Source of the DNA: Eledone cirrhosa
Lineage: Eukaryota
Direction of reading: 5' to 3'
Assembly (NCBI GenBank): GCA_964016885.1
Contig: CAXHJY010000960.1
Coordinates: forward strand, 1-62,882
Length of the DNA stretch: 62,882 nt
Shown: in pieces, positions 290 through 61,234 of the stretch
How positions within the stretch are numbered: the stretch's first letter is position 1
How the letters are laid out: each line of letters starts with the position of its first letter
The notes under the pieces: model-generated
The model's database searches: none
What the model was told of the DNA's origin: nothing
What the model saw: the letters and a program-made list of their open reading frames with translations, nothing else
Translations under genes and position numbers: made by a program

Positions 290-333
<44 letters not shown>

Positions 334-463
334 AACTTTTATTTAAATTGTTGGGTTAACAACGAGTAAATATTTATAACTGATATAAAAGCACTCAACA
401 AGTATTTGGAGTATAATGAAATAAATATGGTTTTATAAATATAGTTTCCATTTATTTAATATC

Positions 464-520
<57 letters not shown>

Positions 521-684
521 GGAACGAGTAGGTCCTACTCGTTCCTATTACCCACTCTACTACCCTAAGTATTGAGTACTTTGGTGCGTTATGGTCCACT
601 TGGTTCCTTACCACATTTCCTTCGTTATATATATATATATATATATGAATATATATATATAACGAAGGAAATGTGTGTGGGTGG

Positions 685-2209: not shown

Positions 2210-2358
2210 ATATATATATATATATTTCGACAGCTAGATCCGGACCTATTGCCTCCTGGCAATATTACGCAAATATGACCCTCCCCAAGTATAACAATAT
2301 ATATATATATATATATATATAATATAAGATCAAAAGATGGTTAAAGGAGTTCAATATA

Positions 2359-2425
2359 TTTTATTATGCGCATTTCAAAAACAAACATCATCAAACAATA
2401 ATATTTGTGTTTTCATCAGATAAAA
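2359..2425 (-). ncRNA. Type I hammerhead motif (family B)
   Basis: Reverse complement of 2533-2599. Confidence 0.8.
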
Positions 2426-2532
2426 CAGGAGAACATGATATGAAGGCTAAAAAAACACTTGTTGATAGTGCAGTTTTAAATCAACTGCACTATCAACAAG
2501 TGTTTTTTTAGCCTTCATATCATGTTCTCCTG

Positions 2533-2599
2533 TTTTATCTGATGAAAACACAAATATTATTGTTTGATGATGTTTGTTTTTGAAATGCGCATAATAAAA
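2533..2599 (+). ncRNA. Type I hammerhead motif (family B), palindromic stem III ATGCGCAT
   Basis: ttttat CTGATGA aaacacaaatattat...tgatgtttgttttt GAAA tgcgca T A ataaaa; predicted cleavage after 2593. Confidence 0.82.
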
Positions 2600-2722
2600 T
2601 ATATTGAACTCCTTTAACCATCTTTTGATCTTATATTATGCATACTCCAGTCCCACAAACTGTAGAGTGCTTCTTATCCGATATCTGCATTGCTTTATTG
2701 TACTACAATAAAACTCACCTCC

Positions 2723-2783
<61 letters not shown>

Positions 2784-5813: not shown

Positions 5814-5856
<43 letters not shown>

Positions 5857-5979
5857 GAAGGTGAGTTTTATTGTAGTACAATAAAGCAATGCAGATATCG
5901 GATAAGAAGCACTCTACAGTTTGTGGGACTGGAGTATGCATAATATAAGATCAAAAGATGGTTAAAGGAGTTCCATATA

Positions 5980-6046
5980 TTTTATTATGCGCATTTCAAA
6001 AACAAACATCATCAAGCAATAATATTTGTGTTTTCATCAGATAAAA
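5980..6046 (-). ncRNA. Type I hammerhead motif (family B)
   Basis: Same core and stems as 2533-2599. Confidence 0.8.
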
Positions 6047-6174
6047 CAGGAGAACATGATATGAAGGCTAAAAAAACACTTGTTGATAGTGCAGTTTTTA
6101 ATCAACATATATATGTTGATTAAAAACTGCACTATCAACAAGTGTTTTTTTAGCCTTCATATCATGTTCTCCTG

Positions 6175-6241
6175 TTTTATCTGATGAAAACACAAATATT
6201 ATTGCTTGATGATGTTTGTTTTTGAAATGCGCATAATAAAA
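6175..6241 (+). ncRNA. Type I hammerhead motif (family B)
   Basis: ttttat CTGATGA aaacac...gttttt GAAA tgcgca T A ataaaa. Confidence 0.8.
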
Positions 6242-6273
6242 TATATGGAACTCCTTTAACCATCTTTTGATCT

Positions 6274-6339
<66 letters not shown>

Positions 6340-6511: not shown

Positions 6512-6805
6512 CAAAAATGAGGAGCACTCTATCTCAAAATTATTTTTGAAAAGCATTAGAAATGCGCAACCGGTAAAAACTTAAAACTAAAACTGAATTC
6601 CCGCCGAGGTTAACTTTGCCTTTCATCCTTACGGGGTCGATAAAATAAAGTACCAGTAATGCACTGGGTAATTGCTGGCCTTGTGCCTAACAGAAACAAT
6701 TACTAATTTATACTTATTCCTAATTAAACTATTGGTAGCATATACTGCCAATACAGGAATTGAAATATCAAGACCGTAGCGGTATGCCATATATCAAATC
6801 ATATA

Positions 6806-12820: not shown

Positions 12821-13721
12821 GAAACCAGCTGCTAATTGTGGCGAAGAATAAAAAAAAAAGGTAAATCTACGAATTCTATATCACAACTGGAATATAACCG
12901 AAACAACAGCAGCAGCAGCAGTAGCAACAACAACAACAACAATAACAACTGCAATAACAACAGCAGCAGCAACAGTAGCAGCAGTAGTAGCAGCAGTAGC
13001 AGCTACATTAACAATTAACATTAACAACAACAACAACAACTATAACTACTACAACTACTACAACTACAATAAGTATTCCAGGAAGGAGACCAAGTAAGAG
13101 AAGCACAGTTCTTATCATAACAGACGCCGGTTGCGGTGTGTCTGTTAACACATCGCTTCATTTCCTACCAACTTTGACAAAACATTGGAACTAACCACAC
13201 TTTCTCTCACTTTACAGAAGAAGAAAAAAACAATAATAATAATTAAGAATAATAATTATTATTATTTAAAACAACAGCGGACAGAATCACGAAAGACCAC
13301 ACAAAAAAAATATATATATTTATTGATATTTAATTTTAAAGAAAAAAAAACTGCTAAAAGAGAATATTTAATTCCATTCTTTGGAAAGAAAAAATATATT
13401 AACAGCAGTTAGAATCACCAAAGGAAAGAAATATTTATTGAAATATCATTTTTTAAAAAAAACAAATTTTTGAAAAGAATATTTAATTTCATTCTTTGGA
13501 GAAAAAAAAATATTGGATATATATTTTTATTTTATTTGTAATAATTTTTATTTTGTTACCAAACGAAAGCGGGTGGCGGTGAGGGAGAGTTTTACCAGGA
13601 AACAAATATTTATAATAATAATAATTAATAATAAACGGATAGAAGGAAAGAAGAAAGCAACTTCAAGTTGAGTTGTAAAAAGAACTGTGGCGACGGTGGA
13701 GCTAGACTCTGAAATTACGTC

Positions 13722-13752
<31 letters not shown>

Positions 13753-13815
13753 AACAATAACAATCATAGCTCAGTTGATATTTTGAACGGTGCGGGCCAG
13801 CAATGCCCGGTCGCC

Positions 13816-15057
13816 ATGGATGTGGTAGCGGCCAAGATAATCGCCTTGGTTGTCCTAACAGCATTGACCATGGTGGCTGGCCTACTACCGGTGAAACTGG
13901 CGAAATTCGTCGGCAAGACTTTGATTAAGATGGACGGAACAATACAGTATATTTTAAATGGATCGCGTTGTTTCTCCGGTGGTGTCTTCCTGGCCACATG
14001 TTTTCTACATCTTATACCCGAAACTCGTGATAAAGTGAAAGAAGTAATGAAATACCTTGGTTCCACCTCCCAGTACCCGGTAGCTGAACTACTCACCATG
14101 TCCGGCTTTTATGCTGTTTTGTTTGTCGAACAAATTATTCAGTTAGTCTACAGAAAAATCCGGAGCCAGTCGCGGAAGATGGTCGGTGGTGAAAATACTA
14201 ACCCACACACGCTACATAACCACCATCCAGGGGGCAGTCTTAATATGAATACCCCGATGGGAAACCTCAGTTCGACCCCTCTTGGAGGTTTTAGTGTCAG
14301 CGGAGGTCTGATGGGCAGTAGTGGCATGGGTAGTGGACTTTCAAGTATTCCTAACAACGGAACCAGTACCTGTGGTATCAGCGGAGGAGTGTTACCCCGA
14401 GAGATCTTACCCACCACTGAGGAACTCAGCTTAAATTCACTGTCCAACGAGGAATATGCAACAGGAACTGTGATAGAAGCCAACGTCGAAATACAAGATG
14501 GTGTGGCCGCCGAAGGGGAGTCTATTGATTCAATATCGATGCAGGAGTTTGAGTTAAAACGTGTTGTTGACGAACTGAAAAACCCCGATGCCGACCGACA
14601 TGTTTACATTCGTTCCATTATATTTATTATAGCTCTGTCTTTCCACGGAATTTTCGAGGGAATGACCCTCGGTTTGCAAAGTTTACAAAGTAATGTATGG
14701 ACCCTATGTTTTGCTATAGCTGTGCACAGATGTGTACTGGCATTTGGCATGGGATACCAGCTGACCAAAGAGAACGAAGGGCAAGGTATGGCATGTTTCT
14801 GTGTTGGTTGTTTTACTCTCATTCTTGGAATTGGTATAATCACAGGAATTTCTATATCATCAAGCACAAAACTATACAGCCACGTGAACGTACCCGATGC
14901 CATTCTGCAAAGTGTGGCGACTGGGACAATATTTTACATCATATTCTTTGATATACTTTTTAAAGACTTACAGGGCCATGACGACTTAAGAAGGGTCTCT
15001 TGCACATTTGTCGGTTTCTGTATGATGGCTGTTATATTCGCCATATCACGGTCATGA
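13816..15057 (+). CDS. ZIP-family (SLC39A subfamily II, ZIP1/2/3-like) zinc/metal transporter, single coding exon, about 413 aa
   Basis: Frame open 13687-15057; first in-frame ATG at 13816 in GCCATGG context. ZIP motifs: CFSGGVFLATCFLHLIPE (TM2), YPVAELLTMSGFYAVLFVEQ (TM3), His-containing loop (HTLHNHH), ALSFHGIFEGMTLG (TM4), AIAVHRCVLAF (TM5), LQSVATGTIFYIIFFDIL. An upstream exon cannot be excluded. Confidence 0.92.
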   Translation: MDVVAAKIIALVVLTALTMVAGLLPVKLAKFVGKTLIKMDGTIQYILNGSRCFSGGVFLATCFLHLIPETRDKVKEVMKYLGSTSQYPVAELLTMSGFYAVLFVEQIIQLVYRKIRSQSRKMVGGENTNPHTLHNHHPGGSLNMNTPMGNLSSTPLGGFSVSGGLMGSSGMGSGLSSIPNNGTSTCGISGGVLPREILPTTEELSLNSLSNEEYATGTVIEANVEIQDGVAAEGESIDSISMQEFELKRVVDELKNPDADRHVYIRSIIFIIALSFHGIFEGMTLGLQSLQSNVWTLCFAIAVHRCVLAFGMGYQLTKENEGQGMACFCVGCFTLILGIGIITGISISSSTKLYSHVNVPDAILQSVATGTIFYIIFFDILFKDLQGHDDLRRVSCTFVGFCMMAVIFAISRS

Positions 15058-15845: not shown

Positions 15846-16127
15846 TACAGACCAATCATGATATTGGTCACTTTGTATTGATTCTTATAAGATATTTATC
15901 TACATGTAATAATGTCGTGGCTTACTTTTATTAATTTATACGAGAGATATATGACTGAAATGTTGAATTCCGTTACTTCCCAAGGAAACAACACGTGTGT
16001 CTTTTCTCTTTCAGGCCTACTTTTAATATTCGTATTGCTTCTATTATTCTCACCATATAATCTGATTATATACATTGCTTTCATTGTTATTGTTATAATT
16101 ATTATGATTATTATTACTTTGATATCC

Positions 16128-16250
16128 TTTTACGATCTGAGTTCAAATCCCGCCGAGGTTGACTTTGCCTTTCATCCTTACGGGGGTCGATAAAATAAAG
16201 TACCAGTAATGTACTGAGTAATTGCTGGCCTTGTGCCTAAAGTAGAAACA
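16128..16250 (+). mobile_element. Same SINE, 5'-truncated
   Basis: TSD attattactttgatatcc at 16110-16127 and 16251-16268. Confidence 0.85.
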
Positions 16251-16578
16251 ATTATTACTTTGATATCCGAGTCATTGTTGTTATTTAACCGGAAAATGTG
16301 CCCTAATGAACATCAAGCCACTACCTGCAGCCTCAGATATTCAGGACGTATCGGAGGGTCCTTGCTGTTCCCAGCAAGCATGCCTTCTGGAGCGTTCCAA
16401 AAAAAGGAGGCTGGGCTAATGATCTTTAAAAAGCCTTGGAAGCCCTCTTCGAGATAGTACCTAGAGACCCTATAACCATGGAGACGGCCTTGATCTCACG
16501 ACAACCCCCAAATCATTCTCTGTTCCCACTTTAAATCCTGGCATCGGTTAATTTTCTCCTCCTTTTCTTCCACACATG

Positions 16579-21520: not shown

Positions 21521-21804
21521 GAAAATTAGAATTGATGCTCTGAAATAGCGATATATATATGAATGTATATATAGTGCATTTTGCAATACACTGTATGCTT
21601 AATTAAAAGCATTTCGAAGACCTTACGCTATTGTTTTAGAGTAGTGACAGTCCTCACTTACTTTAAATTTTCAGCAAACAGTGTTTGCTGAAAATTTAAA
21701 GTAAGTGAGACTATCACTACTCTAAAACAATAGCGTAATGTCTACGAAATGCTTTTAATTAAGCAAGCATACAGTGTATTGCAAAATACACTATATATAC
21801 ATTC

Positions 21805-21810
<6 letters not shown>
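21521..21810. mobile_element. Family I palindromic element (arms about 21551-21810) with hammerhead 3' half
   Basis: Centre cagcaaac-agt-gtttgctg; GAAA-TGCTT..AAGCA-TA-CAGTG; no CUGANGA seen; (TA)n flanks. Confidence 0.65.
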
Positions 21811-30389: not shown

Positions 30390-30656
30390 GAGTATCGGTA
30401 GAGGGTCTGACATACTGGGAGTATCGGTAGAGGGTCTGACATACTGGGAGTATCGGTAGAGGTCGGAGGTAGATTCGGTAGAGATTGGCAGTATCGGTAG
30501 AGGGTTGGACGCCATGCTTTCCAGCATAGTTACGTCCCTTTACAATCTGAGTTCAAATCCCGCCGAGGTTGACTTTGCCTTTCATCCTTACGGGGTCGAT
30601 AAAATAAAGTACCAGAAATGCACTGGGATAATTGCTGGCCTTGTGCCTAAAGTAGA
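30390..30656 (+). mobile_element. SINE with stuttered 5' head
   Basis: TSD aacagttattacatactgg at 30371-30389 and 30657-30675. Confidence 0.8.
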
Positions 30657-30795
30657 AACAGTTATTACATACTGGACAGTTTAGGTTGTCAGTCGTCGTT
30701 TAATGTTTCGGTATCGCTGCTTTTGTGAAGATTGAACCAATATTACTCTTCTTCGGCCTATGTTAGAAAACAAATATCATTGTGATGTGTGCTAG

Positions 30796-38396: not shown

Positions 38397-38498
<102 letters not shown>

Positions 38499-38621
38499 GG
38501 AGGTGAGTTTTATTGTAGTACAATAAAGCAATGCAGATATCGGATAAGAAGCACTCTACAGTTTGTAGGACTGGAGTATGCATAATATAAGATCAAAAGA
38601 TGGTTAAAGGAGTTCCATATA

Positions 38622-38688
38622 TTTTATTATGCGCATTTCAAAAACAAACATCATCATGCAATAAAATTTGTGTTTTCATCAGATAAAA
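38622..38688 (-). ncRNA. Type I hammerhead motif (family B)
   Basis: Same core and stems as other family B copies. Confidence 0.78.
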
Positions 38689-38829
38689 CAGGAGAACATG
38701 ATATGAAGGCTAAAAAACACTTGTGGATAGTGCAGTTTTAAATCAACATATGAAAAGTGGTTTTAGATTGATGTGTGATATTGGGAAAAATATTTTATTT
38801 AGAGAGGGGGGGTGGAAAGGATGAAAAGG

Positions 38830-43058: not shown

Positions 43059-43243
43059 GGGCGGTGGATTGGCAGTATCAGTAGAGGGTCGGACGCCATG
43101 CTTTCCAGCATAGTTACGTCCCTTTACGATCTGAGTTCAAATCCCGCCGAGGTTGACTTTGCCTTTCATCCTTACGGGGTCGATAAAATAAAGTACCAGT
43201 AATGCACTGGGTGATTGCTGGCCTTGTGCCTAAAGTAGAAACA
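43059..43243 (+). mobile_element. tRNA-head SINE with Deu/Nin-like core, full length
   Basis: A-box-like tggcagtatcagtagag, B-box gagttcaaatccc, core gcctttcatccttacggggtcgataaaataaagtacc, TSD attatatatct(a/g)ttag. Further copies near 6596, 31610, 35262, 42530, 47357, 52344, 52530, 61492, 61715, 61872. Confidence 0.85.
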
Positions 43244-43343
43244 ATTATATATCTGTTAGCATTCAGACAAAATCCATACACACACGTACACACACTCAGG
43301 CATACATATATATTCATATGCATACATAGACACATATATGTAA

Positions 43344-43466: not shown

Positions 43467-43470
<4 letters not shown>

Positions 43471-43666
43471 TTAATATTGATGAGATTCTACAGGACTAGA
43501 ACTGTTTCATTCTTTAGAAATCATCAGGAATCTGATGATTTCTAAAGAATGAAACAGTCAGTTCTAGTCCTGTAGAATCTCATCTATATTAAAACTTTTA
43601 TACTCTGCAATGTATTGAGTACCTTACTTACTGTGGTTACCTCCGATTCAACCCGGAATAACGTAC
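43467..43666 (+). mobile_element. Family J palindrome (43467-43596) plus about 70 nt tail, in (TA)n
   Basis: agttttaatattgatgagattctacagg...tcatcag-gaat-ctgatga...cctgtagaatctcatctatattaaaact. Confidence 0.8.
43483..43533 (-). ncRNA. Type I hammerhead motif (family J)
   Basis: Minus: agattc CTGATGA tttctaaagaat GAAA cag-ttctagtc-ctg T A gaatct. Confidence 0.72.
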
Positions 43667-45053: not shown

Positions 45054-45123
<70 letters not shown>

Positions 45124-45152
45124 CAAAAGATGGTTAAAAAAAGTTCCATGTA

Positions 45153-45212
45153 TTTTATTATGCGCATTTCAAAAACAAATATCATCAATATTTGCGTTCT
45201 CATCAGATAAAA
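45153..45212 (-). ncRNA. Type I hammerhead motif (family B variant)
   Basis: Minus: ttttat CTGATGA gaacgcaaatattgatgatatttgttttt GAAA tgcgca T A ataaaa. Confidence 0.78.
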
Positions 45213-45362
45213 TAAGGAGACATGATATGAAGCTTAAAAAACACTTGAGAGCAGTGAAGTGTTAAATCAACATATGAAAAATAAAATAAGATGGATATAC
45301 GAGATTGGGAAAAAAGTAGAGGTAGGGGGGAAGGAAAAGGTAAACATATATATATATATATG

Positions 45363-51249: not shown

Positions 51250-51381
<132 letters not shown>

Positions 51382-51419
51382 AGTTTATGAAATGGAAATG
51401 CGGGTATACAGAATTTATT

Positions 51420-51536
51420 AGGTAACAATTGTTTCTATAGTGTATGGGTTACCTATACCTCGCTATTTGAATAATATAAAAATATTATCATAAACCGAAG
51501 GTACACTGTAAGTAAACACACCATGTCGTCAGACCT
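51420..51536 (-). ncRNA. Type I hammerhead motif (family M)
   Basis: Reverse complement of 51571-51687. Confidence 0.72.
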
Positions 51537-51570
51537 TTGTATTGGAATTTTGTATTTGATTCCAATACAA

Positions 51571-51687
51571 AGGTCTGACGACATGGTGTGTTTACTTACA
51601 GTGTACCTTCGGTTTATGATAATATTTTTATATTATTCAAATAGCGAGGTATAGGTAACCCATACACTATAGAAACAATTGTTACCT
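51571..51687 (+). ncRNA. Type I hammerhead motif with about 90 nt stem II domain, stem III ACAATTGT
   Basis: aggt CTGACGA catggtgtgt...catacactata GAAA caattg T T acct. Confidence 0.75.
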
Positions 51688-51841
51688 AATAAATTCTTTA
51701 TACCCGCATTTCTATTTCATAAACTTCTTCTCCATATTTTCTCCTGATTTTAAAACACACTTTATTATACGTTGAGCAATCTCTGACGTCGGTTGACTCC
51801 ATCCAATGCAACTACTTAGTAACATTGGAATACAAATTTAC

Positions 51842-51913
<72 letters not shown>

Positions 51914-52041
51914 AAAGTTCTATTTAAAATTGTTGGGATAGAACAAGTAAATATTTTTATAACTGATATAAAGCACTCGACAAGTATTTGGAGTAGATAT
52001 ACGATATTAATAAATGGAAACTATATTTATAAAACCATATC

Positions 52042-52210: not shown

Positions 52211-52275
52211 TATTTTGTCTGATGAAGGCATACCATAATTTAATTTGGTATCCCTGAAATATGTATAATGAAATA
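52211..52275 (+). ncRNA. Type I hammerhead motif (family D)
   Basis: tattttgt CTGATGA aggcatacca...tggtatccct GAAA tatgta T A atgaaata; predicted cleavage after 52267. Confidence 0.8.
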
Positions 52276-53264
52276 GATATGGTTTTATAAATATAGTTTC
52301 CATTTATTAATATCGTATATATATATATATATAGTAATAATAATTGTTTCTACTTTTGGCACAAGACCAGCAATTATCCAGTACATTACTGGTACTTTAT
52401 TTCATCGACCCCGTAAGGATGAAAGGCAAAGTCAACCTCGGCGGGATTTGAACTCAGATCGTAAAGGGATGTAACTATGCTGGAAAGCATGTCTGACCCT
52501 CTACCGAAACTGCCAATTCACCAGTAATAATTGTTTCTACTTTTGGCACAAGGGCAGTAAAATACCCAGTGCATTACTGGTACTTTATTTTATCGACCCC
52601 GTAATGATGAAAGGCAAAGTTAACCTCGGCGGGATTTGACCAGGAATAATAATAAATGTGAAGACTAAAATCCGAAGAGGGCTTGATAGGGATAATATAT
52701 ATATATATATATGAGGGTGTTAAAGTTTGCTTGAAGCATTGTGAAATGTGTAAAATACGTAGTTTAGAAAGCCATAACAATGCAGATGGGAAATCTCGAG
52801 GTAGGAAGTGAATGATAGATAGGAGAAATAGGAGAAAGTGAAAATTGAGAGAGACAAAGATGAAAACAAAACAAAGGTAGAAGGGTTACCGTAGTGGAGA
52901 TTTAATCCCAATATTTCGGGCTCATGCCCATCAACGGGGGAAAGTTCCAAAAGGGGGGGAACAGGCTAAGCCGGAGAAAGTTGTGATGTCGTTAAAACAG
53001 GATATAGATCTGTTGAATATGCATGCCAATTCTAACACATATATATCCTAGAAACGATCGTTAAATAATGAACTTTTTTTGTTTAATATAAGGAACTGTT
53101 TCATTGTTTTATTCATTATTTTTTTAATATTTTATCTTGACTCTGTATTTCGTTTATCTTTCACCGAAAGTGATTTTTCATTGCATCTCTTCTTTCCATG
53201 ATATCCGGATTACATTGAGTTCTTCATACGGATTGGACACTACCGTAAACTCTTGGTAGATTTA

Positions 53265-55328: not shown

Positions 55329-58300
55329 CTACAGGCTTATGTAAAGAGAAGGCCCATTCACACGGGCCATTCTCGCCACTTTCACCCACCTTTCATAAAA
55401 ACGACTGGGGTGCAGCACCTCTCTCTCCATCCTGATCCTTCTTCCGAAATGATATCGGAAGAAACGGACCAGTTGTTGGCCAGAGAGAAAGGCGCCCGAC
55501 CTCAGTCCTTTCAGACGCGTCCACCATACAACCTCTTTCGCCATGGCTATTACGCACAGAAACACCGCCTCTGCTTCATCTTTGAAGGGGGGAGGCGGCT
55601 TGATCATTACAATAGACTCGGTGGTCAACCGGATCGGTCCCACCCTTGACAGCAGTTGTTCGACATAGCCCCACAGATCGGCTACGCCCGAGCAGTGTAC
55701 CAATGCGTGTGCAACGGTTTCCTCGTCGCACACGCATCTGGGACAGATCTTTTTGGCGGGGTCCCTACCCGGGCGCCCGTGTCTGTAGAGCCTTTCTCGA
55801 ACGGGTAAAGCCCCTCGGTAGCACTGCCAGGCCAGGGACTTCTGGAAGTTGTCCATAGGTCCCGGGCTGAATGTCCTACCGAACAGGCTGGCCAGTTCGT
55901 CCTCCTCCATGTCTAGGGCTTCTCCGAGGGCGTCGTCGCACCTGCTGCGTACCAGCCCTCTATAGAATGTTGCGGTGGAGTCTCCACTGATAACCGGATC
56001 CGCCTGCCAGAGGGCGGTGAGCGCCTGGGCACACTCAGTGTGCCAGGCGCCCAGTTTTCTCGGTCTCTGCTTGACCCAGGATTGTAGTTCGGTGAGTGAG
56101 ACGAGTCTGGGAAAGGTTCGTCTCACAAACGGGGCCCACACCGGTTGTCTGGTGAGGAATACGTAGAGGTGCCGTAGCCTTAATGCGTGTTTACGCATCA
56201 TTAGCCACGGCATCCCCAGCCCTCCTTTCGAAGGGTGTTGACAGCAGATGGATCTCCTCACCATAGGAGCCCGCCCCTTCCAAAGGAATTGGAAGAGCGC
56301 GCGCTCCATCTTGGTGAGGGTTTCCCTTGGGCAGGGCACTACGGTCAGGCGGTAGTAGATGACGGACGCTATATAAGTGTTCGCCACCTCCGCCCGACCT
56401 TTCAGGGATAGTTTGCAACTGGCCCACTTCTGGGTCAGTGCAAACACCCTGTTCGTAACCTCCGCCCAGTTTTTCTCCACCTGGAGGTCCGGTCCGAACC
56501 AGACCCCGAGCAACTTCACCGGGCCCTCCGTCCAGCGTCCGACGACGCCATCGGAGGGCATCGGTCTGCCCCTCCACGTGCCGAGTTGCAAACCGATCGA
56601 CTTGTCCCGGTTCAGCTTAGCCCCTGTGAACTTTTCGTACTCCTCCAGTAAGGTGCCGACCGCCTCGATTTCGGAGGCCGTCGACACCATTACTGTCACA
56701 TCATCGGCGTAGGCTGACACCGCTTTCCGCAATCCCGGTTCCAAAGGGATGCCCTGCAACAACTCCAACTTCCGCAGTAGTGGCTCGAGAGTCAACACAT
56801 ACAGAAGGGAGGAGAGAGGGCACCCTTGTCGGATGGACCGCGCGATTTTGAACGGCTCCGAGAGGTAGCCGTTCACCTTGACCCTAGAGCAGATGCGGCT
56901 GCTGTGCATAGCAGTGATCCAGCCCCTGAAAACGGGTCCGAAGCCTGCCGCCGCTAGCACCGCATCCAGGTAACCATGGTCGACCCTATCGAACGCCTTA
57001 GATTGATCCAAGTTGATCAGAGCCCCACCAAAGCCGGGTTCGTTCCCAACCCTCTCTATGATGTATCGCATGAGGTGGAGGTTGTCATGGATGGACCTGG
57101 ACGGGATAGCGCATGTCTGCGCATCTCCCACCAGGTTGCCCACGACAAGCGCCAACCTCTTTGCTAGCACCTTGGCCAAAATCTGTAACTCTGTATTTAG
57201 CAGAGTTATGGGCCTGAAGTTACTTATTTCGTCCCCCTTGTTCTCGTCCTTCCTCACTAGCGTGACTACGCCCTTGGTCACAGTACAGGGAATTCTCCCG
57301 TTCTGTTGCCAGTTGCAGTAGACCGCCTCGAGGAGATCGGGGAACAAGTCCGGCATAGCTAGATATAATTCGTAAGGAAGACCATCGAGACCCGGGGATT
57401 TGCGTTTGCCGCATTGGCCCAGCACGTCCTCTATCTCAGCGGCCGAAATCGGCTCCTCGCAAGACTTCGCCTCCCTGTCCGAGAGGCGCGGCAGGCCGTC
57501 GAGGTATGGACCGAAGTCCACGTTTCCAACCGGCTCCCCGCCCCTCCCGAACAGTCGGGCAAAGTGCCTTTGAAAGGCCTCACACATCTGCTTAGGCTCA
57601 AGAATCGCCCGTCCATCCAGGTCTCGCAAAGACCGGATGGTGGATTTAGTTCCACTGTTGGCCTCTGTCACGCGGGCCCAGCTAACAGCTTTGGCCCCCT
57701 CGTTCCCTAGAGCACGTATTTTACTTCGGACAACGCAGCCTTCGTGCTTCGCGTCGAAAAACTGGCTCAAAGCCGTTCTCGACGCTAGCACTCTGGCCAC
57801 GTCGCCGCTTCTAATTGCCTCTTCTACTCTATCTATTAGCTCCCTTTCCTTCCTATTCCTATCCGCAGCTAGAACCTTACTAAATTCAATCGAGACTACT
57901 CTAATCTCTCTCTTTAGAGATACCCACCACCTGCTGTTGACGATCGCTCCAGTCAACCGTTCCTTAACTAACGTACTAATCCGATTCCTGTAGGCTCTAC
58001 TTGCCGGCAAGGACAAGTTGAGCTTCCAGTAACCGGGGCCCTGTCTATGCGTTCTATCAAGGTTGACCATGCAGGTCACCAACTTGTGGTCTGAATAGCC
58101 AACCATGAGCATTTCTGGACAACTTAAAAAGTCCCTGTCCTTATTTCTAACTAAAAATCTATCTAGGTACGATCTAGATGATCCGCTGCGATTTGACCAA
58201 GACCAGGTTGGCACCGTCGGAAAATCTAGTCGAAATCTATCGGCCAGGTCAAATCGGCCGAGTAACCCCTTGAGGCTGTTGCACCCCTCTCTATCGGGAC

Positions 58301-58766
58301 ATGCCCCTGCATAGTCCCAACGTGCATCCAGGATACCATTCCAATCCCCCACTAAAAGCAGGGAACGGGACGTCCCTAGAAAAGACTCCAGACGCTGGAA
58401 AAAGTCGGGCCGCTCTGTCCCAAAAGGGGCATATGCGGCTATCAGCCTAAAGGCTCTACCTTCACCACTGCCAAGGTCCAGCACCACCAGTCGACCCCCT
58501 GGGTCCAAGTGAACTATCTGTGTTGCAAGGCCCATATGTTTTTGCAGCAGAACGACAACCCCACCCCCACCTCCGGGCTGACAGAGAGATGCGTGCATCT
58601 CAAAGTCGTCAAAGGTGGGGGCTAGCTGTCGCATGCTGCTGATCCGGGCCTCGCAGATAACCATCACATTTATAGATTGTGACCTGAGGTCATTTAGAAG
58701 CATTGCTTGCTTCCAAGACGAGCCCAGGCCACGCGCATTTAGACACCCTACTCTTAGCACAGCCAT
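55329..58766 (-). CDS. LINE ORF2: APE endonuclease + reverse transcriptase + C-terminal Cys/His motif
   Basis: LNARGL, GDWN, SYLDRF, SDHK (APE); KSPGLDG, FRPITLLN, DQSKAFDRVDH, RQGCPLS, YADD (RT); CPRC...ETVAHALVHC; uninterrupted. First ATG at 58766. Confidence 0.95.
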   Translation of the reverse strand: MAVLRVGCLNARGLGSSWKQAMLLNDLRSQSINVMVICEARISSMRQLAPTFDDFEMHASLCQPGGGGGVVVLLQKHMGLATQIVHLDPGGRLVVLDLGSGEGRAFRLIAAYAPFGTERPDFFQRLESFLGTSRSLLLVGDWNGILDARWDYAGACPDREGCNSLKGLLGRFDLADRFRLDFPTVPTWSWSNRSGSSRSYLDRFLVRNKDRDFLSCPEMLMVGYSDHKLVTCMVNLDRTHRQGPGYWKLNLSLPASRAYRNRISTLVKERLTGAIVNSRWWVSLKREIRVVSIEFSKVLAADRNRKERELIDRVEEAIRSGDVARVLASRTALSQFFDAKHEGCVVRSKIRALGNEGAKAVSWARVTEANSGTKSTIRSLRDLDGRAILEPKQMCEAFQRHFARLFGRGGEPVGNVDFGPYLDGLPRLSDREAKSCEEPISAAEIEDVLGQCGKRKSPGLDGLPYELYLAMPDLFPDLLEAVYCNWQQNGRIPCTVTKGVVTLVRKDENKGDEISNFRPITLLNTELQILAKVLAKRLALVVGNLVGDAQTCAIPSRSIHDNLHLMRYIIERVGNEPGFGGALINLDQSKAFDRVDHGYLDAVLAAAGFGPVFRGWITAMHSSRICSRVKVNGYLSEPFKIARSIRQGCPLSSLLYVLTLEPLLRKLELLQGIPLEPGLRKAVSAYADDVTVMVSTASEIEAVGTLLEEYEKFTGAKLNRDKSIGLQLGTWRGRPMPSDGVVGRWTEGPVKLLGVWFGPDLQVEKNWAEVTNRVFALTQKWASCKLSLKGRAEVANTYIASVIYYRLTVVPCPRETLTKMERALFQFLWKGRAPMVRRSICCQHPSKGGLGMPWLMMRKHALRLRHLYVFLTRQPVWAPFVRRTFPRLVSLTELQSWVKQRPRKLGAWHTECAQALTALWQADPVISGDSTATFYRGLVRSRCDDALGEALDMEEDELASLFGRTFSPGPMDNFQKSLAWQCYRGALPVRERLYRHGRPGRDPAKKICPRCVCDEETVAHALVHCSGVADLWGYVEQLLSRVGPIRLTTESIVMIKPPPPFKDEAEAVFLCVIAMAKEVVWWTRLKGLRSGAFLSGQQLVRFFRYHFGRRIRMEREVLHPSRFYERWVKVARMARVNGPSLYISL

Positions 58767-58790
58767 GTTGGTGGTAAAGAGAAAAGGCAC

Positions 58791-60433
58791 TTACCTCTCT
58801 GCGTCCCGGGAAACGGGCCGCTCAATTTCCATGCTGGTTGGGGATGGGTTGTTGGGTGGGGTTGTGGTTTGTGGAAGTGAAGGGGCATCGGTGTGTTGTG
58901 GGGTTGGGGTGTTTGTCGTTGAGTGGGTGTCTGGGTGAGGTGGGGGGGTGAAATTTTTTAGGAGGACGCGGTTGATTGGTTTGGCGCAGGGGGGGCCCAC
59001 GTCCTCCGTGAAATTTATTTTCAGTGTTTTGTACAAGTGCATTGGGACTTTTATCATTTTCAAATGAGGTAGTCCCACAGCAGTTATAAAGTTTGGCCCT
59101 TCGGTTTGGACCGAAGGGTTTGCTGAAATTGTTTTCCGTAATTCTTTGTTGTCTGTGTTCATGTATGTGTATTGTAATGTCTTTTTTTGTGTAGCAGTTA
59201 GTGTTGTGTGACAGGGAGGGGTGGTTTGTGTGTAGTTTGTGTTCTCTTGGGGGGGATTAAAGTTAACATGTGTGTCTGTGGTGCGTCTCCTCTTCTTTCT
59301 TTTTACTTGTTGGAAGGGATCTTTTTCGTCTTGCGACGAAAGAGGTTCGTCTTCCTTGTTGGGTGGGAGGGGTATGTTTTCTGGTAGTGTTTGCGGTGTG
59401 CGTGTTTTTGTATTTGTTTTGGGTGGGGAGGGATTGGGTGGGACAGTATTCTGTGTTATTTTTTCACGTGTTTGTTGTTGTTGTTGTTGTGGTGGTGGTG
59501 GTGGGGTTGTTGGTTTTTGTTGTTGTTGTGGTTGTTTTTGTTGTTGTAGTTGGGGTGGTGTTGGTGTTGGTAGCAGTGTTTTTTTCTGTGTGAGCTGGGG
59601 ACAGGCAGCCCTCAGGTGACCTCTATTGCCACAGAGGTAACAGGAGGGACGCCTACCCTCCACAATAATGTTGAGGTGGGTACGGTCATCCAGCATGACG
59701 CGCTCAGGGATTTGGGCGATGCGTTCTGGCCTTATTTGGGTCAGAACTTCGATGCTCGTTCCACTGAACGCGTCGCCGGATGCCTTCCCTATTGAGATGA
59801 GGTTGTCCTCGTCTAAATTGAGGAAACCGGTTAGTAACCACCAGTAGTTTATGTTTGGGGTGATGGTGGTTATCCATATCCTCTGGGTTTTTTTACCCAT
59901 GTAGGTAGGGAAGAAGGTGTAGTGTGTGGACCGAATTGGCGACACAGAGTATTTTTTTGCCGCCAATTCGTCTTTCATCAATATGGATAAACTCCCATAG
60001 AGTTTATCCTTTTGTATGAAAGTGATGTCTCTCATCGCGTCTTTCAAGACTAACTGAGTTTCCGCTTGAGATGGTTGCGCTGGTTTCTTTGTTTTATTTA
60101 AAATTGTTCGGAATACGACAGTTCGTAATTCCGTCTGTCTTTTTAGCTCCGGAGGTGAATGTATAGAAAACGATCCGTTTTCGCCAAAAGACACATATTT
60201 CTTGGCTTTTTCCAGCATTTCTTTTGCTTTTGAAATATCTTCCAGCACATAAGCGACTGATAATTTAGCCGTTTGTGCAAAAGATATTTTGTTTTCGTTT
60301 TGGATATTAGTATTGTTTTGTTTCTCGTCGTTTGAGTTGTTTTCATCTTTGTTGTTGTTGTTGTCTTTCTCGTTTCGTGTGTGGATACTTGTGACGTTTG
60401 TGTTGTTGTTGTTTTTGTTGTCTTTATTGTTGC

Positions 60434-60464
<31 letters not shown>

Positions 60465-60641
60465 GTTTTCAAATTCTTGTGTAGTTGTGGCTACATCTAG
60501 TGGTCGGTCAACAGGTGAAGACAATTCTTCCTCTCTCTGACCTCTGCCTTTGGCATCTGCTGCTGTGACAGTGGCAGGGGGAAGCTGTGAGTATGACTTC
60601 CCCTTTCCTTCTTTGATTGATGGTGAAGATGATTCAGCCAT
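58791..60641 (-). CDS. LINE ORF1, gag-like nucleic-acid-binding protein with CCHC zinc knuckle
   Basis: CYLCGNRGHLRAAC knuckle preceded by VEGRRPS; N-, Q- and P-rich low-complexity regions; basic KRKKRRR; first ATG at 60641. Confidence 0.85.
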
Positions 60642-60867
60642 TTTTCTCAAAATAGGGTTTTTCGAAGTTTTTCGAAAGATAAAATGTTCACAATACTATT
60701 TCGCCCAAAGGCGCAGAATATTTTGAGAGACCGACCAGATCAAAATTTGACCTGGCAGTCCCTCTACAAAATGATACAAAAATGAAAGTTTACAGTTTAC
60801 AATTTCCGTATGAATTTAAACAAAAACTTACCGAGCGAGCTCAGCACATGTGTCCATCAGATAGATG

Positions 60868-60900
<33 letters not shown>

Positions 60901-61032
60901 AGTGTGAGACAGAAAGGTGTACGGGACTTAGAATATTACAAAGATGGTTAGAAATACATAGAACCACACACACACACACACATATACACACACATGCTTA
61001 TATATATATATATAGATATTCAATATAGAAAT

Positions 61033-61083
61033 GGCTTCTACAAGACTAGAACTGTTTCATTCTGGAGAAATCATCAGGGAGCC
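61033..61083 (-). ncRNA. Type I hammerhead motif (family J relative)
   Basis: Minus: ggctcc CTGATGA tttctccagaat GAAA cag-ttctagtc-ttg T A gaagcc; stem I differs from the 43483 copy but still pairs, with one mismatch. Confidence 0.68.
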
Positions 61084-61234
61084 GATTGAACCCGGGATAA
61101 ACATTTGGTCAATTTAGTTGTAGCGATAAATATAACATGTACATAAATTGTAGCGCATATCCAAATAGATGTGTGTTTTGGTAGATTGGGGAGAAAATAT
61201 AATACATACATAGGTGTAGTTATCTGTTTATTTT

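Follow-up and report, generated by a model that had tools for sequence, protein, structure and literature searches.

We analyzed a 62,882-nucleotide stretch of Eledone cirrhosa DNA (GenBank assembly GCA_964016885.1, contig CAXHJY010000960.1, forward strand; hereafter, the window), which is rich in (TA)n repeats and in which self-comparison revealed several families of short head-to-head repeats lying within the TA tracts. Two of these repeats, at 331-465 (family D) and 519-627 (family A), are short head-to-head insertions of the pseudo-long terminal repeat (pseudo-LTR) of Penelope-like elements (PLEs) in (TA)n, and both are joined near the predicted cut of a hammerhead ribozyme (Table 1; +1 is the first base after the cut). 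The sequence and the self-comparison bear out the initial annotation in describing 331-465 as the family D tail in minus orientation joined to an arm in plus orientation, and position 416 does correspond to 52268, the first base past H17 (52267). GTATA at 411-415 had been called an ambiguous microhomology; the ambiguity is real, but the matching subfamily shares only the 4 nt TATA at 412-415 between both arms, which places the break point anywhere from -4 to +1, and the overlap reaches 5 nt only if the parent carried a GTATA stem. The second insertion is, as proposed, a mini-palindrome whose main arm begins 2 nt downstream of GTC/GGGG (the slash marks the cut). Its element proper spans 521-625 with an inverted arm of 12 nt, GG at 531-532 is common to both arms so that the join is +3/+6, and the central T533 represents the T form of two mirror outcomes, GTAGG-T-CCTAC and GTAGG-A-CCTAC.

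Table 1. Coordinates of the two mini-insertions, their flanking tracts, and the reference copies of both families in the window
Position	Strand	Feature	Basis or match
291-330		(TA)n target tract preceding the family D mini-insertion	sequence
331-415	minus	Family D tail arm, extending the PLE pseudo-LTR at its 3′ end	87% to 51914-51995; matches subfamily of L032, L037, and L043
412-465	plus	Family D inverted arm, between the approximate hammerhead cut (416 = +1, with uncertainty as far as -4) and the proximal end site ATATCG	96% to 52263-52315
466-520		(TA)n tract separating both insertions	sequence
521-532	minus	Family A inverted arm, covering +17 to +6 as counted from the cut	sequence; class of L254, L260, and L281
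531-625	plus	Family A main arm, +3 to tail end (~+97)	97% to 2114-2208
626-645		(TA)n tract following the family A mini-insertion	sequence
2072-2208	plus	Reference family A arm: 3′ hammerhead half (GAAAC, stem III, GTC; C17 = 2111, +1 = 2112) and tail	
52211-52275	plus	Reference family D type I hammerhead: core 52219-52225, GAAA 52256-52259, H17 52267; weak self-complementary stem III	

Genome-wide pattern searches were run on the 3.0-Gb assembly, in which a key in the family A tail had 29,856 matches and a key at family D +11 had 45,007. Throughout both families, an inverted, 5′-truncated pseudo-LTR is accompanied by a tail of ~80 nt on one side, and nearly all tail ends adjoin TA repeats (30-locus sample per family); the published PLE layout likewise consists of an inverted arm without a tail and a main arm with a tail in (TA)n (PMC8557442, PMC3846280). 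At locus L446, the family D hammerhead and tail are followed by a 518-amino-acid frame with a YRDD motif, starting ~50 nt past the tail. The first Atlas hit of this reverse transcriptase (RT)-like frame scored 0.95, and its neighbors carried HTH_animal and RVT_1. A single RT open reading frame (ORF) downstream of the pseudo-LTR was seen for family D, and only the C-terminal end of the ORF was recovered for family A. A second frame at L446 carries a Cys-rich, GIY-YIG-like region, and in L446, L029, and L054, a Cys-rich linker precedes VVY...YVG, which may represent a GIY-YIG endonuclease motif; Pfam gave no match. Three long family A copies (L095, L100, and L119) have a comparable C-terminal piece upstream. 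The spacing of the four-cysteine linker deviates from the published CX2-5CxxC pattern of Neptune and Nematis, and the PLE frames had no Pfam match at 1e-3 and no significant match in PDB. Judged by these sequence features, families A and D are pseudo-LTRs of PLEs, putatively of the endonuclease-bearing kind.

In family A, the ribozyme motifs are ordered as stem I, UUGANAA, a long stem II, GAAAC, stem III, and GUC. The 5′ half is present in no window copy and was found at other loci (2,889 genomic places). Across 30 core-bearing loci, U4, G5, A6, A8, and A9 were invariant (30/30), N7 was variable, and position 3 was U in 24 and C in 6. The U3-A8 combination is a natural covariation of active hammerheads (PMC3088659) and occurs as a core variant in Schistosoma PLEs (PMC4209133), and by its motifs, family A qualifies as a type I hammerhead with a U3-A8 core and three helices, a core definition outside which the C3-A8 copies fall. 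When the fold of one copy (L484) was constrained, stems I, II, and III formed at -23.9 kcal/mol. Stem III was predicted at -7.1 kcal/mol in family A versus +4.7 kcal/mol in the family D monomer; as a dimer, family D, whose core is canonical, reached -2.2 kcal/mol, which resembles dimer-type PLE hammerheads, and it is predicted to cut poorly.

Other hammerhead-like sequences were noted alongside these two families. Family B (window 2322-2725, 2781-2977, 5854-6278, 38496-38790, and 45122-45314) is PLE-like and palindromic; its hammerhead has a canonical core, and its stem III is a GCGC palindrome. Another type I hammerhead, seen in a single copy at 233-283 on the minus strand, has a short stem III and (TA)n on its flanks, and a palindromic family at 43468-43595 and 61019-61086 carries CTGATGA...GAAAC...GTC with atypical stem I spacing and apparent covariation between the two copies. 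Among the family A core loci (L463-L492), about one-fifth of the copies are C3-A8 yet belong to expanded lineages, which offers a natural test of ribozyme activity in the spread of the element.

The junctions of family A showed a sharp peak at the predicted cut. A pattern anchored in both arms had 582 matches, of which the first 100 rows (99 loci) were mapped at both arm ends, and blunt CCCC/GGGG joins were scored as ambiguous and excluded. Junctions were free of microhomology at 33 of the 99 loci, and 54 of their 66 ends lay between +9 and -12; 21 of these fell exactly at +1, against 5 at +2, 5 at +3, none at -1, 1 at -2, and none at -3 (binomial p = 2e-14 versus uniform). Other family A subfamilies repeated the +1 peak (50 of 442 loci listed). 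Many junctions read CCCC-filler-GGGG, each arm stopping at the cut. A third set covering all subfamilies had 394 matches, with loci partly overlapping those of the 582- and 442-match sets; its first 30 loci, classified by script, comprised 14 junctions with both arms at +1 and a filler, 5 blunt joins, 5 with microhomology, and 6 others. By eye, 32 of 100 rows of this set had both arms at +1 with a filler, 19 of these fillers being at least 2 nt long, and no filler of at least 2 nt was seen at -1/-1 in the same rows. Direct joins to (TA)n gave the same mode (all 100 matches in one TA phase, by eye), with 8 (TA)n-GGGG joins at +1, all without microhomology and none with an extra G. As a class, therefore, the family A peak at +1 is beyond chance, and microhomology is not its explanation because it was scored in junctions free of microhomology and in direct joins to (TA)n. 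Decay of the CpG at the cut site (2/62) was considered as the source of single A/T spacers and rejected, as this rate cannot supply 13 of them; it may account for 3 ATT spacers and some of the CCCT-GGGG and TT-GGGG joins.

No such peak was found in family D. By eye, 28 of 30 unselected family D arms extend upstream beyond the core, and 3 of these 28 carry small internal deletions. There are 199 two-arm junctions near the cut, and in the 50 that were mapped, the microhomology-free ends between +9 and -12 were flat, with 3 of 29 at +1, 3 at -1, 3 at -5, and 4 at +6, a distribution that differs from that of family A (p = 0.01). Joins of the 331-465 type occur 43 times genome-wide, 2 with the exact junction and 4 with an extra TA, and neither the exact junction nor the family D ends exceed chance. 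A weak peak could be hidden in this family because its TA-rich stem III equals both the target repeat and the commonest added bases. Family B also had no peak at its cut (50 of 87 loci, by eye), and its stem III is weak. A negated family D pattern (1,075 matches) misses direct (TA)n joins by design and is diluted by small indels, so it was excluded from the statistics, and a BLAST-type genome search contributed nothing to the histograms, because it gives the best 40 of 746 candidates and so favors long copies. The initial annotation had taken both mini-insertions as copies of the 3′ cleavage product and had proposed a histogram of break points relative to H17 as the check. The outcome is divided: the single-nucleotide peak supports the proposal for the family A population, the flat distribution speaks against it for family D, and neither of the two window copies is proof by itself. 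For 331-465, an ordinary TATA microhomology join is the most fitting reading, and this insertion gives no evidence for a cleaved template, because the family D histogram is flat and the TA-rich stem III resembles the (TA)n target. The insertion at 519-627 belongs to the cut-proximal class and is compatible with a cleaved template without being proof of one, since complementary DNAs (cDNAs) reaching +3 suffice for its join.

A second and much larger class of family A ends lies upstream of the cut. In 90 unselected rows, two of which are the same locus, the main arm started between -31 and -50 in 58, between +1 and +4 in 4, and beyond -130 in 8; the other 20 started elsewhere. Both arms reach -41 at 4,166 loci. 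The site reads TCAGT or TTAGT, inside hammerhead stem II (window 7133, minus strand; loci L568-L597), and resembles the initiator consensus. Among direct joins at -41 (338 matches), the base before AGTCC, at -42, was G in 12 of 30 loci and in ~36 of 100 rows by eye, and it was G in none of 23 read-through family A copies. The ratio of G to A was 36:13 at -41 versus 0:8 at +1 (Fisher p = 1e-4, by-eye counts). An extra G marks a capped template in L1 (PMC11702581), and internal promoters are known in PLEs (PMC2377424, PMC3846280), so -41 is likely a capped transcription start within stem II, yielding an RNA that would omit half of the ribozyme; the missing cap G at +1 is as expected for an uncapped cleavage product. 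A splice-acceptor origin of the -41 hot spot was rejected, as the ends pass the AG to -41 to -46 and carry the extra G, and so was natural snap-back at the stem II loop, since the natural loop was kept in 0 of 50 loci (by eye).

The pairing of the two classes is also informative. If the two arms drew their templates independently, 2 × sqrt(126 × 4,166), or ~1,450, mixed +1/-41 junctions would be expected. There were 396 candidates, and ~9 of the 100 listed end at +1, giving ~36 in total, ~40-fold below the expectation. Such a shortfall suggests a single RNA, or at least one common RNA pool, as the template of both arms.

CpG decay, RT stalling, and a second capped start all fit the family A peak poorly. 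In the stalling explanation, which we regard as unlikely, the template is uncleaved RNA, and the +1 ends arise where RT stalls, or where a nuclease trims the cDNA, at the foot of the stem III hairpin or past the G-run. The peak is indeed found only in the family with a strong stem III, and the CCCCG-W-CGGGG (5/30) and blunt CCCC/GGGG (5/30) classes are compatible with -1 ends. However, a stop ahead of stem III predicts ends at -1, the -41 RNA is predicted to be continuously paired from -8 to +4, and the long fillers present at +1/+1 are absent at -1/-1. The shortage of mixed junctions argues against stalling as well, because arms partnered with a -41 end hold an identical hairpin and G-run and show little +1 excess (~9 of 100 listed).

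It is improbable, in our judgment, that +1 is a second transcription start or the end left by a protein nuclease or a decay intermediate. The C/G step would fit a pyrimidine-purine start, family A junctions clearly record one RNA start at -41 so that another is conceivable, and copies with C3-A8 exist. Against this stand the cap G count at +1 given above and the coincidence of +1, to the nucleotide, with the hammerhead scissile bond. Finally, it is improbable that the mini-insertions in general are microhomology joins or later deletions of longer palindromes without any special RNA end, since the family A peak holds in microhomology-free junctions and direct (TA)n joins, even though family A has microhomology hot spots at -7/-20 and -14/-14, 519-627 has its GG overlap, family D is flat, and for 331-465 alone, with its 4-nt TATA overlap, this is the best reading; it may also apply to 519-627 when that copy is considered alone.

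We therefore consider it probable that the mini-insertions are head-to-head PLE insertions in TA repeats and that a minority of those in family A, likely including 519-627, were reverse-transcribed from the 3′ product of hammerhead cleavage. The cleaved RNA is likely a real but minor template, accounting for a few percent of insertions at most, and most family A copies derive from uncleaved RNA. In the mechanism we propose, the PLE protein would nick both strands of (TA)n, and cDNA would be primed at two sites of one RNA, the tail end (~+97) and an internal site (~+17 to +20). Both cDNAs would then run off the RNA at its 5′ end, which would be the capped start near -41 in the major route and the uncapped ribozyme cut in the minor one, and their 3′ ends would be joined end to end via added bases or short microhomology. 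For 519-627, GGACC would pair with GGACC around an A-A mismatch in the middle. By eye, 7 of 100 rows show GTAGG-A-CCTAC and another 7 its mirror, GTAGG-T-CCTAC, as expected if this mismatch is repaired either way. Fold-back of a single cDNA as the sole route was rejected, as both mirror joins are present. The 5′ half of the core is missing from the -41 RNA, so cleavage would have to take place in longer read-through or full-length transcripts with the whole ribozyme, or in trans. The broader proposal, that PLE head-to-head junctions are a single-nucleotide fossil record of germline RNA 5′ ends (a capped start in stem II and an uncapped cut), with both arms of each insertion copied from one RNA and joined end to end, is one toward which we lean with some reserve.

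Several observations weigh against a cleaved template. Most family A copies read through the cut, and the mismatch of C3 opposite A8 occurs in 6/30 core-bearing copies, some of them in the subfamily of 519-627, which shows the +1 peak. The hammerhead fold of L484 lies 2.4 kcal/mol above the minimum-energy fold (-26.3 kcal/mol), and an Rfam scan of the window returned no hammerhead among the best 150 of 455 matches, which were only microRNA-like matches to hairpins and simple repeats. Direct joins have a shoulder at -1/-2, where 5/100 are helped by a shared T and 4 TT-GGGG joins are ambiguous, and the blunt CCCC/GGGG and CCCCG-W-CGGGG classes could arise from -1 ends. Several of the 100-row counts were made by eye. 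Work on Poseidon of Anolis carolinensis (PAc; Frangieh et al. 2024, PMC11167929) points the same way: no RNA-seq reads stopped at the PAc cut, and cleavage proved dispensable in vitro, whereas a minority of family A ends lie exactly there.

The window contains other features as well. Long near-perfect palindromes of 350 and 250 bp lie at 51379-51728 and 21559-21806, with no hammerhead match in the scan; the first scores near the mir-2513 threshold, probably merely as a hairpin. An apparently intact two-ORF long interspersed nuclear element occupies 55329-60695 on the minus strand, encoding 634 and 1,153 amino acids with endonuclease and RT motifs recognized by eye. A single-exon frame of 461 amino acids on the plus strand (13672-15057) resembles a ZIP zinc transporter, and a family of ~190 bp resembling short interspersed nuclear elements has at least 12 copies in the window (e.g., 6596-6713, 16124-16261, 30483-30668, 43059-43254, and 52338-52639).

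Much of this architecture is already known from PLEs with pseudo-LTR hammerheads (Cervera and De la Peña 2014, PMC4209133; Craig et al. 2021, PMC8557442; Arkhipova et al. 2013, PMC3846280), which share with the families described here the type I hammerhead, including the U3-A8 variant, the inverted 5′-truncated 5′ copy, the tail on one arm, (TA)n targeting, and an initiator-like sequence in the pseudo-LTR. Family A differs in its long, monomer-competent stem III, as opposed to the minimal dimer type usual in animal PLEs, and the tails of ~80 nt compare with 30-40 bp in published PLEs (PMC8557442). The 2014 paper states that evidence for cleavage in vivo was lacking (PMC4209133), and the 2013 paper interprets junction palindromes as self-priming (PMC3846280). 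In PAc, two RT start sites bracket the tail, both target strands are cut and extended, and uncleaved RNA is the dominant template (PMC11167929); the two arm ends described here fit these two start sites, and a few percent of cleaved template agrees with unprocessed RNA being the main PAc substrate. The R2 ribozyme, which resembles that of hepatitis delta virus, provides another parallel, as genomic 5′ junctions follow its cut, and non-templated bases as well as small deletions are found at them (Eickbush et al. 2013, PMC3774820); R2 is a different class of element with a different ribozyme, and its cut sets the full-length 5′ end, whereas in family A the cut would truncate the template as a side route. 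The capped 5′ end of L1 likewise leaves an extra G (PMC11702581).

In L1 twin priming, two primers on one RNA produce an inversion, and the two cDNAs cover different parts of that RNA, whereas family A arms usually overlap and share the RNA 5′ end. PLE hammerheads, inverted pseudo-LTRs, tails, and ribozyme-defined 5′ junctions in R2 were known already. A literature search covering text outside supplements and subscription journals turned up no description of PLE junctions that coincide with the hammerhead cut, and the part consulted of a 2026 retrozyme preprint (10.64898/2026.07.22.740005) does not treat them.

The in vivo activity of the hammerheads conserved in PLE pseudo-LTRs and the origin of the inverted pseudo-LTR are both named as open questions in the literature (PMC4209133, PMC8557442, PMC11167929). 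Junction histograms provide a cheap, genome-only test of which RNA 5′ ends are used, whether they are capped, and whether both arms share a template, and they predict that cleavage follows stem III stability across families. Family A also provides a specific natural ribozyme and RNA for the existing in vitro PLE system. If the reading of family A proposed here is true, its junctions would constitute in vivo evidence that PLE hammerheads cleave and that the product is mobilized, and the inverted pseudo-LTR of these elements would be explained.
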